DNA of 64,000 bases from an uncultured Chthonomonadaceae bacterium. GTDB taxonomy: Bacteria > Armatimonadota > Chthonomonadetes > Chthonomonadales > Chthonomonadaceae. The DNA lies in contig CAWFQB010000001.1 in NCBI GenBank assembly GCA_963817895.1, positions 1,472,001 to 1,536,000 of the forward strand, read 5' to 3'. Each line of letters starts with the position of its first letter. Positions within the stretch are counted from its first letter, which is position 1. The notes under the pieces are model-generated. The model made no database searches, was not told the DNA's origin, and saw nothing but the letters and a program-made list of their open reading frames with translations. Below, piece by piece: positions 22,713 through 29,018 of this stretch. A program made the translations under genes and the position numbers.

Positions 22713-23383
22713 CAACTCCCCATGCGTAAACGCAGGGGCTTCTATGCAGGTATACCTACAACGGTATGTTGCCCCATACCGATTTTGAGGATATTCAAGG
22801 CTGCGTTGGTATCTCTATCCAGCCTTAATCCACAATTCGGGCAGAAGTGAACCCGTTCTTTGAGGGCTTTGGGGACACGCGCACCACACCCGGAACAATC
22901 CTGACTTGTACAGGCCGGGTTGACTTCCGCAAACTTACGACCGGCGCTTTCAGCCTTGTACATAAGCGCGTTGCGGAACAGGAACCAGCCTGCTTCTAAG
23001 ATGCTTTTGTTCAAACCTGACTTCCGGCTTGCGCCATTGGGCAGATACTCTTGTGTTTGCGCGTCCTGTTTTGGTTTAGGACGCTTGACCATGTTTTCTA
23101 CTTGCAATTTCTCAACGGCAATCAGACCGTACTGATTTACGATCTTGCGGCTCTCCTGATGGATGAAGTTATGCCTGCGGTTCCTGATGCGCTCGTGGAT
23201 ACAGCGTACAACTTTCCGCGCCTTACGCTGTTGAGGGGAACCCTTCTGATGCTTCTCGACCTTGCGCTGCGCTTTTGCCAGAGCCTTATGATGCCTACAT
23301 GTTCAACGCGAGAGTTACCGAACCCGCTTCGCGTGTTGCGATTTTGTATCCCATATGCCTGAAGGCGAGGGTCTTAAAATCGC
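22709..23383 (-). mobile_element. Internally deleted IS200/IS605-family element
   Basis: Subterminal hairpins at 22716-22742 and 23338-23383 enclose a 3' tnpB fragment; minus-strand end reads GGGGAGTTGTCAC. Confidence 0.75.
22742..23290 (-). pseudogene. tnpB: TnpB C-terminal fragment
   Basis: KALAKAQRK...IAVEKLQVENM...SGLNKSILEAGW...TSQDCSGCG...CPNCGLRLDRDTNAALNIL; N-terminal half and RuvC-I absent. Confidence 0.9.
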
Positions 23384-23397
23384 GTTTCTGATAATTA

Positions 23398-24426
23398 GGG
23401 CCTTGTGCTAGTTAGGGAAGGCCAGTGCCTTGATCTGCAAGAACTCTGCCTTGCCGAGCAAGCGGTTTAGATAGATGCACACGGTATGGGCGGTCAACTT
23501 GGCGTACAAGCGGGTACACAAGCCCCAAAAACTATGCGCATGATTGGTTTCGACGTTGAACTGTTGCGTGAGTTGCCCATTGACCGTCTCGATTATCTGC
23601 CGCAAACGGTTGAAGCGGTACTTGGTTTCGCGACTAACCTGTTGTTTCTGGTTGGAACGCGGCAGGGTTAGCAGACGGACATTGCGTTGGGCACACTGTT
23701 CCTTCGCTTCCTGACTGATGTAGCCTTTGTCGCCCATGACCAGCAAATTCGCGTGGGCCGACAGGATTTCCTGCCCCACGCTCAGGTCGGTTTCGTTGGC
23801 AGGGGCGAGTTCAAAGTCCAGAATAGTTCCGTTGACAGCTAACAACAAGTGCAGTTTGTAGCCGAAGATTGTCCACTTCTTGGAACTGACTTTGCCGAAG
23901 GTCGCGCCGTGTTCTTTCCAGCCGCTGCCCGCCTGCGGAGCCAGATGAAAGCCGACAACGGGAACCGGCAGGCTGTCAAGCAAGCATTGTCCATCTTGGG
24001 CTAAGTCCAACAAGCCAAGTACACCTTGACGGATCAGGTTCATCGCCTGACACAGGGTACGGCGGCGACGATTGAAGCGCGAACGCTCGGGCAAATGCGG
24101 GAATAAGTGGCGGTACATCCGCCATTCCTGCATCATCTCCGTTTCTTTGTCCCACCCCCGGCACTCGCCCACAAGGGCGAGCGTGAGCAATTCGGCATCA
24201 CTGCACTCGGATTGGGGGCCGGGATGGGTGAACTGACTGCCGATTTCTTGCCAGATACTGTCAATCACATAGTAGACCCACAAGCAGAAGTCGTCAAAAT
24301 GCGTTATCATGGAAGTGCCTTTCGTTACGCGCGGAGTTTGTGTGATGATAAACTCTTGTACGTAACGAAGGCACAAACTGAACAAAGGACAGGCCACACA
24401 ATGACGTGCTAACTAGCACAAGGCCC
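23398..24426 (-). mobile_element. IS982-family insertion sequence, 1029 bp
   Basis: Perfect 18-bp terminal IRs GGGCCTTGTGCTAGTTAG (23398-23415, 24409-24426); AATTA direct repeats on both flanks. Confidence 0.92.
23408..24310 (-). CDS. IS982-family DDE transposase
   Basis: SDAELLT, ERSRFNRRRR, LDSLPVPV, GYKLHL, GDKGYIS, RQIIETVNGQL. Confidence 0.93.
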   Translation of the reverse strand: MITHFDDFCLWVYYVIDSIWQEIGSQFTHPGPQSECSDAELLTLALVGECRGWDKETEMMQEWRMYRHLFPHLPERSRFNRRRRTLCQAMNLIRQGVLGLLDLAQDGQCLLDSLPVPVVGFHLAPQAGSGWKEHGATFGKVSSKKWTIFGYKLHLLLAVNGTILDFELAPANETDLSVGQEILSAHANLLVMGDKGYISQEAKEQCAQRNVRLLTLPRSNQKQQVSRETKYRFNRLRQIIETVNGQLTQQFNVETNHAHSFWGLCTRLYAKLTAHTVCIYLNRLLGKAEFLQIKALAFPN

Positions 24427-24428
24427 AA

Positions 24429-24755
24429 TTAGGATTTTCGCTTGACGGTTGATCTGCGCCGCGTCTTTCCCGGCACTACCTTTGCTTTACAGGCGTGGCC
24501 GTCTCGACACTTTGCCCCGCACTCTGGCCGCTCCGACTTCGGCAACTGCCACACGCCCCGCAAACCGTCAGGCCGCGCCCGGTGACTGCCCCATTCTATC
24601 AGCAGGGCGTTGCGTATGTCCTCGATCCGGCGCTGGCGCTTACGTTCCCGAACCGCCTGCCGTTCGGCGTATCGGGAGATCGTCCGGCCTTCTCTCTCGT
24701 GTTGCTTATGGAAACGGAAGCGGATCGCTGCGTGTTGCTCAAAAATCGTTGCCAT
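24429..24755 (-). pseudogene. Possible truncated HGGxSTG-like Cys-motif protein next to the IS982 end
   Basis: CGAKCRDGHACKAKVVPGKTR resembles the first half of the motif; the CRxHGG half is missing. Confidence 0.45.
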
Positions 24756-25225
24756 TTTGCCCCATTTGTGCCGAAAATTGCAGAGTTTTGCCCGGTTTCA
24801 GGGCTGTTTTGGGCATTTATTTCCATACCCCATATTGCGGGCGCACCCGCGCGTTTTTGCGGCGAAGACTTCCCCTTACTTACATTCAGGAGTGTTTTCG
24901 CCTGTGTCCGCATGATATTCCCATGAAATTAAAATAATGCGGATCGGCCCAGAACAGGCTCAGGTTCGTTTCCGGTCTGACGGCGGCTCTATGCAGTTAG
25001 GCATGTAGTTATACATGGAACGTAATCTGTCAGGCGGGCGTTTCCACACCACGTTCTTCTTTCCACCCCGCCCCCTTGTCAGGTTTGCTCCGCAAGGTTG
25101 CCGGTTCTTTGTGCAACTCGTGTTTTCCACAGCGAGTTCTTTCCATTTTGCGGCCTATAACTTGGGCACGGCACATACAAGTGCTGAACATTTCTCGTTC
25201 TTACTTTCCTCACAAGGAGTTCCTT

Positions 25226-25903
25226 ATGCGCTCTGGCAAACTCGTTTTCGGCATCGCCCTCGCTCTGGTTGCAGTAAACGCCCGCTCGTCTCAGGCTCAG
25301 GTGACAATTACGGTTGCGCCCACCGGCAGCATCGGCAGCTTCGGAACCCCCGCCTCAGGTTCGACGCCCACCTACGGCGAAGTGCTGACCGACCCGGCAG
25401 GCAATCCCTATCTGCAATCCATCACCTACAATATTGATAACCCCAACGCTGCGGTCATTCCGTTTCAGGCGTACGTCTACAACTGGAACGGCTCTTCCAT
25501 CACCGGCTCCGCGCTGTATACGTCCGCCCCCCTGTCCATTGCGCCGAGCGGCAACCTCTTTCTTCCCGTTTCTGTGACCGGGATCAATACCGCCCTGACA
25601 CCGGGCAGTCAGTATTTGGTCTTCTTTTCCACCCTCGGCTTTGCAGGCAACATCGGCGGAGCGCGTTATCAAACCGCTCCTGACTCCGCGTATACAGGCG
25701 GAACGTTCGCGTTTAGCAACGCCGCAACGTTCGCCACCCTTCCGAATTCGTTTACGTCTGGTGTATTCGGTGATCTGGCATTCACAGCAACGTTCACACC
25801 CACATCTACTGCCGTTCCCGAACCCGGCTCCGTCGCCCTGCTCACCGGCCTGAGCCTCACCGGAGCCGCCCTCCTGCGGCGCCGTCGCAAAACACGCGCG
25901 TAA
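25226..25903 (+). CDS. PEP-CTERM sorting domain protein
   Basis: AAGGAG RBS, signal peptide, C-terminal VPEPGSVALLTGLSLTGAALLRRRRK. Confidence 0.93.
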   Translation: MRSGKLVFGIALALVAVNARSSQAQVTITVAPTGSIGSFGTPASGSTPTYGEVLTDPAGNPYLQSITYNIDNPNAAVIPFQAYVYNWNGSSITGSALYTSAPLSIAPSGNLFLPVSVTGINTALTPGSQYLVFFSTLGFAGNIGGARYQTAPDSAYTGGTFAFSNAATFATLPNSFTSGVFGDLAFTATFTPTSTAVPEPGSVALLTGLSLTGAALLRRRRKTRA

Positions 25904-25999
25904 TCGCGTCAGGCGACACGCGCAGGGCGGTTACGCCTCAACATCAGCCACAATCCTAACGATGCGAATTGTGGCTGATGTTGCTTTATTCTTTGCGTT

Positions 26000-27445
26000 C
26001 TAAAAGCAACGCCCTTTTTGACGCAGTTCCGCTTTCGCCTGTTTTTGCGCCGCTTCGATTTCGGCCCAGGGACATTCCCAATGCACAATGCGGTAGCGCC
26101 CGGCATGTTTGCGCAGGAAGAACTCCGCTTCGCCCGCCCAACCCTCGGTTCCTTCCTCCCAGGCTACCTGTAGGTTAACATTCACGCGCAGCAATTTGCG
26201 TTTTTCCACGATCCAATCCCTTCTATCCGAACTGGAACGAACCGGCAGATAGTTTTGCGTATTGGCGGAGGTTACCTGAGAAGTCCATGCGCTCCATAGT
26301 CCGGCCTGCTGTTCCACGCCCTGTTTCCAATCCAGTTCCTGCGGCAGGTGCATTTGAAAATCGAACTTCCATGCCGAACTGAAGGCGCGAACATCGGCCT
26401 GACGCCAGCCTGAATCGGAACGCGCAATGACATCTTGAATGCCCTGACGCTCCTGACTGGAAAGCGCGTCCCACATTTCCGGCGGAGCAGGTATGTCCTC
26501 CCGCATCCGAAGCGGCTTATCGGGCGGCATCTCGAATGTGCCAGCCGGGGCGGGCTGATTGAACGTATAGCGGTCACGGACTTGGAGGCTTGCCAGGCTG
26601 CCTATCAGCAGATTGGTTTCTCGTCGTTCCTGACGCGAAATCCGGCCCGTTTCCGGCTCCGTCCAGATTGTGCGCGTCACCTGAAATTTGGTGGAAATCG
26701 TTTCACGCTGCCAGCGCAGAAGCCGCTGCCCGTCTTGCTCGATCTCTTGCATCCGCCACGTTTTTAATTCTGCTGCCCGCTCTTCCGCGTCCTCTTTGGC
26801 TGAGAAATGCGGAAACAAGGCCTTACTCAGCAAACCGTCAGTGGTGTAAGGATCGGACATGGGAGCAAGCACGCTGTGATTCCTGTCTGAACTTGTATAT
26901 AAATGTCCGCGCGCATCCATTACACTGTGTGTCCAGGAATTATCACACTCGTTGCGATGAGCAAGCGCGGGAGGGTTCAAACTCATCCAATACTGCGTAG
27001 ATTGGGGCTTTACTTCCATATCCCCGCCATATATTGTATCCGTTCGTACCCAGGCTGCGGACGAAATCGCCTGCGCGTCACTGAGGTACGGTTCTCTCGC
27101 GGGCGCGGTTTCGAGAAGTATCTCCGAATCTTCCGGCGCAGGGGCTTGCTGCGGGCTGTCGCGGTTCGGAGAAGCGGCCTGATGCGCGGCCTGTATTTGC
27201 GCGATGTGTTGTTTCAGGCGAGGCCAACTGGCGAAGCCGTATTCCCGCGCGACAATCAACTGCGCGTCGGACAGGCAAAATGCAGACGGGGCAGACGTAA
27301 TCCGGGCGGGAGGGAACGCTGAAGAATAAATATTGGCGCGGGCAACTGAAGCGGGATTGTTGGCGCGTAATTCGGCAAGCAGGTTTTTGGCCTGCTTCCT
27401 GATATGTTCCCAGTGGGGCAGGGCAGGCAGCGAACGCGAGGGCAT
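26000..27445 (-). CDS. Hypothetical protein with a conserved N-terminal helical module (EHIRKQAK...LSDAQLIVAREYGFASWPRLK)
   Basis: AGGAGG RBS; N-terminal module recalled from ankyrin/glyoxalase fusions; rest unassigned. Confidence 0.75.
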   Translation of the reverse strand: MPSRSLPALPHWEHIRKQAKNLLAELRANNPASVARANIYSSAFPPARITSAPSAFCLSDAQLIVAREYGFASWPRLKQHIAQIQAAHQAASPNRDSPQQAPAPEDSEILLETAPAREPYLSDAQAISSAAWVRTDTIYGGDMEVKPQSTQYWMSLNPPALAHRNECDNSWTHSVMDARGHLYTSSDRNHSVLAPMSDPYTTDGLLSKALFPHFSAKEDAEERAAELKTWRMQEIEQDGQRLLRWQRETISTKFQVTRTIWTEPETGRISRQERRETNLLIGSLASLQVRDRYTFNQPAPAGTFEMPPDKPLRMREDIPAPPEMWDALSSQERQGIQDVIARSDSGWRQADVRAFSSAWKFDFQMHLPQELDWKQGVEQQAGLWSAWTSQVTSANTQNYLPVRSSSDRRDWIVEKRKLLRVNVNLQVAWEEGTEGWAGEAEFFLRKHAGRYRIVHWECPWAEIEAAQKQAKAELRQKGRCF

Positions 27446-27572
27446 GACAGACCTCCTTCTGTAAAAGCCTGATGTCCACGCGCGCAGGCAGAAAGAGGGT
27501 GACGATAATTCTAATCTAAAACCAGTTGGGTTCGACCCTTCCCGTGGACAGGGCGCGGCTGGAACGCGCTGG
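27446..27572 (-). ncRNA. Putative structured cis-regulatory 5' leader
   Basis: 8-bp helix 27473-27480/27543-27550; anti-SD 27489-27498 pairs with SD region 27452-27461; hairpin 27528-27538. Confidence 0.65.
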
Positions 27573-27576
27573 CAAC

Positions 27577-27605
27577 AGTATAGCAAATCCACGCGGGCGC
27601 GTCAA
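27577..27605 (-). promoter_or_regulatory. Sigma70-type promoter
   Basis: TTGACG (27605-27600), 17 nt, TATACT (27582-27577) with extended TG. Confidence 0.75.
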
Positions 27606-27634
27606 GAAGAATTTTCCTGAATGATTTAAGAATA

Positions 27635-27700
27635 GCCCCTCTCCCAAGCTTTTTTGGGAGAGGGGTGTCCTTCCCTACGGGTGGACGCCCGGGGTGAGGG
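27635..27700. repeat. REP-like palindrome
   Basis: CCCCTCTCCCAA..TTGGGAGAGGGG...GGGGTGAGGG; largely the reverse complement of 28942-29007. Confidence 0.75.
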
Positions 27701-27705
27701 CATAG

Positions 27706-28362
27706 TTACCCGCTGCGGATAGTGCGCGAGAGTTGCAGAGCGGGAAACAGAAACAGAAACGTGTGCAGGACGGCATCTATATCCGTCGTCAGGGTCACGG
27801 TCTGAACCAGCGCTCCCGTATCCACGGAAAGCGTCAGAACTTCCCACACATGGTCGCGCTCCGCCGGGGTGGGACGCAGGTAGTGACGGTCGCAAGTTCC
27901 CACAATTTGCTCGGACGCATCGGTAAAGGTGTGAACCACTTCGGTCGGCTCGCTTTGCGGCTCGTTTTCCGGGCGAACCGGGCGACGCGCTTTGCCGATT
28001 ACCGCGCCACCCGGCAATTCAAAGTCCGCGCCCCAATTCGCGTCGTACAGCGTTCCGAACAGCGTTCCATCAGGATGATGTATCTGCGCTTTCGCTTCCC
28101 GCTTTGTGCCGCCCCAGTAGGAAGTGGTCGTCAGCAGAAGATTGCCGTCCGCGTCTTTCAACTCCCCGTGCAGGTGGCTGTCGGCATTGAACAGGTGGAA
28201 CAATCCTGTTTTCTTGTAAACCTTCGCGAACCGCGCAAAAACGACGCCCTGCTTGTCCCGGTACTCAATATGCAGGTTACGTATATCTATGTTTTCTTGC
28301 ATCCGCGTTGCCACGCAACTGCGGCATTGTAAAAAAGGCGAACTCATTACAAGTGTTTCCAT
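27706..28362 (-). CDS. Hypothetical protein
   Basis: 218-aa ORF with plausible composition, coupled to the upstream ORF. Confidence 0.55.
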   Translation of the reverse strand: METLVMSSPFLQCRSCVATRMQENIDIRNLHIEYRDKQGVVFARFAKVYKKTGLFHLFNADSHLHGELKDADGNLLLTTTSYWGGTKREAKAQIHHPDGTLFGTLYDANWGADFELPGGAVIGKARRPVRPENEPQSEPTEVVHTFTDASEQIVGTCDRHYLRPTPAERDHVWEVLTLSVDTGALVQTVTLTTDIDAVLHTFLFLFPALQLSRTIRSG

Positions 28363-28844
28363 TATCGGTTCCTCTCCCTGCCTGCCGCCGCAACGTATTG
28401 CCCCAGATTCCTGACTTGCGCAAGGGAAATCGGCGCGTCGTTCAGTTCGACCGTCATAGCTTCGGAGATGCCGGAGGCAAGCGCGTCTTGCAGCACTTGC
28501 AGCAAAATACAGCCTGTCTCAGAGGCGACAATTGTCTGCTCCCCGCTCAACGCGCCCGGTTCCTGAAGATCGCTGACCCAAATATTGGCCTGCAACAGCG
28601 CCTGCTGAATACGAAAGCGATAAACACACTCGCTTACCTGAGCCTTCACCTCTCTGCACCACGTTTGACACTGCGCCAGCGTCAACAAACAGGGTTCGTT
28701 CGGGTTATCTAATGGAACGGTAATCGTTTCGCCGTTTTCCGGGTTCTGTTCGAGCGCGGAAGCGAGGTCAGCCTGTAGCAGGACGCACAGCAGCAGCAGC
28801 GCTTCCGCCTGATTCCTGCTGCGCGAACTTTGCGGGCAGGCCAT
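28362..28844 (-). CDS. Hypothetical protein; true start may lie near 28916 across a frameshift
   Basis: ORF abuts the next gene; no motif recognised. Confidence 0.4.
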   Translation of the reverse strand: MACPQSSRSRNQAEALLLLCVLLQADLASALEQNPENGETITVPLDNPNEPCLLTLAQCQTWCREVKAQVSECVYRFRIQQALLQANIWVSDLQEPGALSGEQTIVASETGCILLQVLQDALASGISEAMTVELNDAPISLAQVRNLGQYVAAAGRERNR

Positions 28845-28941
28845 CGGGATTTAGTTTGGCGATAGCGTTTGCAGAGCGGTGGATATTCTGCATGAGAATC
28901 GTTTCGGATGGCGGCATCTTCTTGTCTCGCTTTCTGCTGTA

Positions 28942-29007
28942 CCTCACCCCGGGCGTCCATTTATGGACACCCTCTCCTGACGGCTCGTTTTTCGTTAGGA
29001 GAGGGGC
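28942..29007. repeat. REP-like palindrome
   Basis: CCTCACCCCGGGCGTCCA...CCCTCTCCT...AGGAGAGGGG. Confidence 0.75.
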
Positions 29008-29018
29008 TAATGGCTGCA

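Follow-up and report, generated by a model that had tools for sequence, protein, structure and literature searches.

A widespread, uncatalogued leader RNA with two pseudoknots is paired with a portable N-terminal protein module

Pseudoknotted folds that close the Shine-Dalgarno sequence (SD) are known from the SAM-II and preQ1-II/III riboswitches, and riboswitch classes usually reach several gene families in one pathway. In type III toxin-antitoxin systems, tandem pseudoknot repeats and a terminator precede the toxin gene; type III antitoxin RNAs, like retron ncRNAs, stay protein-bound as cofactor, scaffold or inhibitor. HDV-like ribozymes follow the helix order P1-P2-P3-P3′-P1′-P4-P2′. Escherichia coli rpsO (uS15) and the alpha operon (uS4) carry autogenous pseudoknotted leaders, according to the accessible parts of PMC10931766, and tisB requires a 5′ pseudoknot for S1/30S binding (accessible parts of PMC7708055). 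The available text on COMPASS cluster #630,527 describes an uncharacterized motif directly upstream of glyoxalase, flavin monooxygenase and NmrA-like genes (bioRxiv 10.64898/2026.10.21.760802).

Here we analyze a window of 64,000 nt from an uncultured Chthonomonadaceae bacterium, in which the leader of one gene is a copy of a widespread RNA family of ~130 nt with two pseudoknots, uncatalogued in Rfam 15. Together with the N-terminal module encoded behind it, the RNA forms a real, widespread and uncatalogued RNA-domain pair. Rfam 15, the comparison that the earlier note on this DNA had proposed, gives 0 matches in the window, and relaxing the threshold to E 1 brings up none over the leader locus; multi-phylum RNAs with two covarying pseudoknots outside Rfam are rare. 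A published description of the RNA or the domain was not found in the literature searched, of which motif-survey supplements may list the motif. Ankyrin, glyoxalase and VOC are absent from the main text of PMC11109978, as are ankyrin and glyoxalase from that of PMC5737381 (the supplement of either may hold the motif) and from the readable parts of the supplements of PMC2864571 and PMC8632094.

The gene (26000..27445, minus strand) encodes a 481-aa protein comprising the module, a linker, a beta-rich middle domain and an NTF2/SnoaL-like C-terminal domain (about aa 324-479). At default significance, neither Pfam nor NCBIfam has a family that matches the protein. The cargo behind the module yields a low-confidence model (mean pLDDT 56) with NTF2-like Foldseek matches, so the C-terminal domain is probably NTF2-like; this cargo is rare (9 proteins). 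A sigma70-type promoter lies at 27577..27605 on the same strand, with TTGACG (27605-27600), a 17-nt spacer and TATACT (27582-27577). The near-consensus promoter proposed earlier is thus present, with 10/12 consensus matches and a predicted start near 27570 that gives a leader of 125 nt. Taken alone the site is weak, since it is the sole promoter-like site in 25000-29000 yet shuffles yield 1.6. Across the family, a TANNNT hexamer stands directly upstream of the leader in 75/87 members, versus 5 when a control position 300 nt farther upstream is examined, which places the promoter, and with it the predicted transcription start, on the upstream side of pairing strand A.

The genome carries a single copy of the leader RNA and a single copy of the module, at a site that is variable within the genus. 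One same-genus genome (G806) has other genes there, one for an AAA-type ATPase beside a partner gene (L382, 1-1480), which we take to be a defence-like pair, and no module match was found in a second same-genus genome. Several features surround the cassette. A REP-like palindromic repeat at 27626-27703 has >100 short copies across the genome, and further repeats occur at about 25790-25900 and 28940-29010; a candidate terminator at 27665-27636 was rejected as a cassette part, being this genome-wide repeat. A transposase-like element (23394-24430) has at least three more 100%-identical copies in the genome, and 22742-23107 is presumably a short TnpB-like fragment. Convergent with the cassette gene, 25076-25903 encodes a secreted-looking protein without a Pfam match, whose VPEP...RRRK tail we take to be PEP-CTERM-like.

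The leader of the window belongs to what we call type I and, through the start codon, spans 27443..27571 on the minus strand (84 bits against model R1, whose seed includes this copy). It opens with hairpin P1 (27553..27569), in which 27569-27565 pairs with 27557-27553 and the loop holds the PK1 5′ strand CCAG (27562-27559). The PK1 3′ strand CUGG (27522..27525) pairs with this loop, forming the second pseudoknot; both strands deviate here from the family consensus. Within the same 5′ domain, P2 (27542..27552; CC 27552-27551 with GG 27543-27542) closes the loop bearing strand A (core GUCCAC, 27549-27544), and P3 (27528..27538), preceded by a conserved GAA, is a 4-bp hairpin with a 3-nt loop. 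A variable unstructured linker (27501..27521) leads to the 3′ domain (27452..27498), where P4 stacks on P5 and PK2 is formed. The anti-SD helix P4 pairs 27498-27490 with 27460-27452 and contains the SD GGAGG (27456-27452), while P5 pairs GCCUG (27489-27485) with CAGGC (27471-27467) around a loop that carries A′ (core GUGGAC, 27479-27474). All of these features lie on the minus strand.

The earlier note had read from this one sequence a strand A (27550-27543), a hairpin (27538-27528), and strands B (27498-27489), A′ (27480-27473) and B′ (27461-27452), and all are in place. Its 8-bp A/A′ helix exists, with a conserved core of 6 bp (27549-27544 with 27479-27474) and with G27543 belonging to P2; its 10-bp B/B′ helix exists as well, except that the family assigns G27489 to stem P5. 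The pseudoknot that it drew over the SD is therefore real (PK2/P4) but incomplete, as PK1, P1, P2 and P5 were missed. Among 1500 dinucleotide shuffles with the last 20 nt fixed, 88 contain an 8-bp helix and 15 a 10-bp SD helix, and 0/1500 contain both in crossing order. The nested minimum free energy of the window leader is unremarkable (z -0.38).

Comparison across phyla confirms that the structure upstream of homologues is conserved and covaries, as the earlier note had asked to see. We compared the upstream regions of 30 loci from the phylum of the window and 80 loci from about ten phyla, and these 110 loci share one leader type (109/110, as qualified below). Removing one duplicate, one half copy and two leaders with long inserts from the 109 left 105 candidates; de-replication at 85% identity (mean 59%) reduced them to 87, and dropping three further long ones gave 84 leaders, which were aligned by sequence alone. 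The family order is P1, PK1 (P1 loop to the strand after P3), P2 around strand A, GAA, P3, linker, P4 on P5, and PK2. Over this alignment 90.8% of cells pair across 37 pairs, 30 of which change on both sides, a pairing level reached in 0/500 shuffles and compared with 39-47% in slid controls. By element, pairing reaches 79.5% of cells in P1 (two-sided change at 3/5 pairs), 97% in P3, 90% in P4, 98% in P5 and 93% in PK2. Covariation says little for P2, which is 96% paired but changes on both sides in just 2/84 sequences. The linker is 19-33 nt long in 84/84 sequences, never <19 nt, with a median fold energy of -0.8 kcal/mol, and the unpaired GAAAG and AC nucleotides are highly conserved.

Under a stricter tree-aware null applied to the seed alignment, the threshold of E 0.05 is reached by just three pairs, in P5, P3 (pair 41-45, E 0.03) and P4; the PK1 pairs stand at E 0.55 and 0.95, and the PK2 pairs are too invariant there. 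Both pseudoknots nevertheless covary in held-out copies that were aligned without them. For this stronger comparison, 68 matches (the window and 67 from loci that the seed alignment lacks) were aligned by a model into which neither pseudoknot had been built, and when all unpaired column pairs were scanned blind, PK1 and PK2 pairs took 8 of the top 9 ranks. These 10 pairs are 94% paired and show 102 two-sided changes, versus 26 in shuffles, a control that ignores relatedness; two-sided change occurs at 4/4 pairs of PK1 and at 5/6 pairs of PK2, the latter being 99% paired.

Leader and module are coupled in both directions. The leader lies upstream of 109/110 top-scoring module loci (60 of which were seed members; the missing one lies at a contig edge, another retains just the 3′ half, and one locus is a duplicate) and of 36/41 weak-scoring module genes, where the five exceptions are two genes with a short leader, one half module, one leaderless gene and one with a decayed leader. 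Conversely, a module gene follows 46/47 RNA matches at E below 1e-5 in 150 genomes of the window's phylum and 8/8 strong matches in 61 genomes of another phylum (that of G302), which together make 54/55. The exception is a half-length remnant, an orphan 5′ leader half downstream of a tRNA gene (L183, 1585-1672, minus strand) that has a promoter-like site of its own but lacks a module gene; it is a decayed cassette. None of five weak RNA matches precedes a module, and the weak, module-free matches in G113, G123 and L392 were treated as noise. Co-inheritance alone explains part of this coupling, since RNA and gene are physically linked. Where module genes stand in tandem, each has retained a separate promoter and leader (L114, L143, L091).

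The other two of the five weak matches (E 1e-4 and 7e-4) lie before tig and raised the trigger-factor leader as a module-free relative. We consider them a chance resemblance because, in 11 loci of that genus, these leaders form a long hairpin followed by a U-run. The conserved hairpin and U-run, about 100 nt before tig at these 11 loci of one genus (L195-L206), are attenuator-like in their own right.

The cassette is patchily distributed, occurring in 62/301 genomes of the window's phylum, 23/251 of the class of G303 and 9/201 of the phylum of G301. Cultured carriers include Cellulomonas terrae and Phytoactinopolyspora (L064, L106). Clustering of neighbors at 79 loci recovered just lineage-specific synteny and generic response regulators, and found at these loci no neighbor gene common across phyla that could supply a regulator. 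The viral contigs scanned held no confirmed relative.

The N-terminal helical module (aa 1-85; 27191..27445, minus strand) carries R16, K20, Q62 and W74 and shares homology with the N-terminal portion of PF20066. Of 265 candidates compared with residues 1-88, 135 are relatives; their modules are joined to ankyrin repeats, to Clp N-terminal domains and to several further families, and an NCBIfam search adds ClpX zinc-finger and bleomycin-binding (VOC) cargoes behind the module. The claim that this module occurs fused to unrelated domains thus holds, and with two-way coupling and cargo swapping so does that of a portable RNA-plus-module cassette. At E of 0.001 or lower, a 29-sequence module profile collects 10,255 clusters (50% identity). 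The predicted fold has five helices (pLDDT 87). Against the PDB, by sequence and by fold, nothing rises above background (best Z 4.3, no Foldseek match at E 0.001), solved RNA-binding folds included, and matches in the ESM Atlas are to unnamed clusters alone.

Homology to PF20066 is seen at the profile level alone. Profile-profile comparison with the N-terminal part gives 97% (E 8e-11); PF20066 weakly matches 4/29 module relatives (best E 0.0026), and the window protein falls below the curated cut-off of PF20066 (Glyoxalase_8), with no match. NCBIfam PRK05973 also matches weakly over the module. Among 174 modules linked to a leader, K/R occupies profile positions 17 and 21 (R16 and K20 here) in 99% each. 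Internal module copies keep it in 3/9 at position 17 and in 2/14 at position 21 while retaining core A, G, F and W, on a residue profile built from N-terminal copies and with 18 internal copies that are few and related. Four leaderless first modules also lack K/R at position 17 (L193, L194, L220 and the first gene of L080); two leaderless copies retain the basic residues (remnant L322 and the PF20066-type L372).

Other module subfamilies carry other leaders. The VOC-fused subfamily is preceded by a type II leader of ~75 nt that has the same 5′ arrangement as type I and differs in a closed P2 loop, the lack of PK2 and a different 3′ end. This structure could be parsed in 60/60 distinct copies, all close relatives of one lineage, and more distant copies were seen by eye, three alphaproteobacterial ones being without an obvious SD. 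A type I 5′-domain sequence profile scores 3-9 bits on type II leaders, against a shuffled top of 6.6; L318 alone exceeds the shuffled range, and L192 and the distant leaders give no match. Because the profile fails to separate type II from shuffles, the likeness of the two types rests on hand parsing and a PK1 partner-shuffle test (0/5000 for 12 hand-parsed leaders, biased by the parsing). In type II, the PK1 3′ strand can instead pair over the SD region.

Genes of PF20066 carry a type III leader of ~160 nt that opens with a hairpin whose loop pairs downstream. Its structure was found in 11/11 first loci (0/5000 shuffles) and before 12/13 held-out strong PF20066-like genes (loci L343-L353, L359, L364-L371, L373, L374 and L376). 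This uncatalogued RNA, about 170 nt before PF20066 genes, is multi-pseudoknotted and conserves CCUGCCGCUCGC, GGUGAA and GGCAAYGCGAGC. Type I and type III RNA profiles show no cross-matches, and Rfam gave no match over type II, type III or distant leaders at 18 loci, bar one unrelated sub-threshold match. VOC-type cargo occurs behind both the type II leader, with the present module, and the type III leader, with PF20066 modules (L349, L351); hence RNA class follows module subfamily rather than cargo.

At least three leader classes are well supported, and two more were glimpsed. Another conserved structured leader, seen by eye in two copies, lies some 200 nt upstream of the match at 1500 on the minus strand of L378 and L379, whose genes we read as encoding a weakly related N-terminus and an ATPase-like domain, PRK05973-like. 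Very distant module subfamilies (L321, L323, L324, L377, L315 and L320) keep the P1-loop pseudoknot with differing sequences; two of them, L324 and L377, give weak scores with the type I model.

We lean towards the reading, which we hold to be moderately probable, that the module, by binding the leader of its own mRNA, feeds back on translation of its gene. The locus would then be a self-contained cassette. Its helices are shown by covariation: the first 50 nt of the 125-nt leader predicted from the promoter form a compact pseudoknot (P1/PK1/P2/P3), the 3′ hairpin P4/P5 buries the SD, and the loop-loop helix PK2 (A/A′) ties both domains together, with A′ transcribed ahead of the 3′ strands of P5 and P4. 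As an RNA-binding domain, the module may read the folded leader via the basic face of helix 1 (R16, K20), and it may either lock the closed fold or block ribosome standby on the unstructured linker. Free protein would shut off its own synthesis, and cargo domains swapped behind the module would inherit this control. Repression would probably be released, at a guess, when the cargo engages a partner or ligand.

Folding calculations bear on the direction of such control. In nested-structure calculations with constraints, which are not pseudoknot energies, the median SD pairing probability is 0.98 when free, 0.996 with the pseudoknot strands locked and 0.42 with A/A′ forced as a nested helix (10th-90th percentile 0.11-0.81). 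Computed as a plain helix, A/A′ blocks P4/P5 and opens the SD. A linker of at least 19 nt would be expected if all helices coexist or if the linker is a standby site. In an acidobacterial type II set, PK1 folding drops start-codon pairing from 0.98 to 0.34, the opposite sign to type I, and the sign of control is therefore uncertain.

A covarying 5′ UTR structure that overlaps the ribosome-binding site and is restricted to genes of the presumed binder is what a protein-binding leader should show, and both properties are found here. An orphan riboswitch would instead sense, with the 5′ pseudoknot domain as its aptamer, an ion or small molecule connected with whatever the module itself does, with P4/P5 or the short 3′ end as exchangeable expression platforms. 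The multi-phylum spread, the two pseudoknots and the conserved unpaired GAAAG and AC would suit such an RNA, as would the similar 5′ domain with a different 3′ end in type II, whose PK1 3′ strand has its alternative partner over the SD. Yet riboswitches typically spread to several gene families of a pathway, and no shared pathway or ligand emerges downstream here: the cargoes (ankyrin, Clp N, ClpX zinc finger, VOC, NTF2-like and others) are mutually unrelated enzymes and folds, the same cargo occurs with different RNA classes, the module is the only part common to all genes behind the leader, and only one of the 55 strong matches, the half-length remnant, lacks a module gene. We therefore prefer autoregulation, since RNA class tracks module and not cargo, and regard the riboswitch as unlikely. 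The retention of basic residues in leader-linked modules and their loss from most internal ones further favors module-leader binding with translational feedback.

Strict one-to-one pairing, a distinct and elaborate RNA class for each module subfamily and a cassette site that varies within the genus are also what one might see if the leader, or a processed piece of it, stayed on the module as cofactor, scaffold or inhibitor in a stable RNA-protein particle, SD occlusion merely setting stoichiometry. Such a particle is hard to reconcile with an RNA that ends just a few nucleotides short of the start codon and whose covarying P4 contains the SD, with neither repeats nor a terminator between RNA and gene and no confirmed relative in the viral contigs scanned, and we judge it less likely still. 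The RNA could finally act as a constitutive device whose 5′-terminal pseudoknot and single-stranded standby site let a closed SD be translated at a low fixed rate with a protected 5′ end, the module traveling along without binding. The layout fits this idea: the pseudoknot sits where the 5′ end is predicted, the linker of 19-33 nt is unstructured and the SD hairpin has a median of -18.5 kcal/mol. A precedent is tisB, with its own 5′ pseudoknot (PMC7708055). It leaves unexplained why the leader never precedes module-free genes, why its class changes with module subfamily and why basic residues decay in internal copies, and we give it the least credence.

Building on autoregulation by the module, a broader proposal is possible, though we advance it tentatively and would not call it probable. 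The module may represent an unrecognized superfamily of small RNA-binding domains (>10,000 clusters at 50% identity) whose subfamilies have co-diversified with their own pseudoknotted leader classes. Promoter, leader and module would then be a plug-in unit grafted on arbitrary sensor or effector domains, with cargo state read out as translation of the cassette's own mRNA, an RNA-targeting one-component system. The link to a leader suggests a function for a very large uncharacterized domain family (10,255 clusters) and bears on the name "glyoxalase superfamily" given to PF20066. Should every module subfamily bind its own leader class alone, these would be compact feedback parts (about 80 aa plus 130 nt) and potentially orthogonal.

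Set against known systems, the locus resembles several, and its RNA belongs to no catalogued family among those tested. A type III toxin-antitoxin system was considered and rejected, as there is a single RNA copy and no terminator-like site between promoter and gene; so was an HDV-like ribozyme, as inner stem P5 encloses A′ rather than closing before it and no Rfam ribozyme matches. Like SAM-II and preQ1-II/III, the leader has an SD-closing pseudoknot, but it has no Rfam match, no association with metabolic genes and another helix order. PF20066 (Glyoxalase_8) supplies a homologous helical domain, but its genes carry the different, longer leader. COMPASS #630,527 is likewise an uncharacterized motif before glyoxalase and other enzyme genes; its available text mentions neither an N-terminal module nor ankyrin, and, compared by description, it may equal type II or III. 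As in tisB, a 5′ pseudoknot, a single-stranded region and a sequestered ribosome-binding site make up the leader (PMC7708055, accessible parts). Unlike in that account of tisB, there is no known antisense RNA or processing here, the product is a 481-aa multidomain protein, the standby-like linker of about 25 nt adjoins the SD hairpin, and a second pseudoknot joins both domains. Protein-binding candidate (PBC) motifs are similar in being structured 5′ UTR motifs tied to one gene family and read as autoregulation, but in the main text of PMC11109978 they precede recognized nucleic-acid-binding proteins, an annotation that the module lacks. The closest parallel is with the uS15 and uS4 leaders, where a pseudoknotted 5′ leader including the ribosome-binding site likewise precedes the gene of the binder, here a presumed one, and where for uS15 lineages use different leader structures as module subfamilies do here (PMC10931766, accessible parts). 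Unlike uS15 and uS4, this is a non-ribosomal protein for which no primary RNA target is known that the leader could mimic, and the part presumed to bind is a small domain that occurs on many unrelated cargoes.
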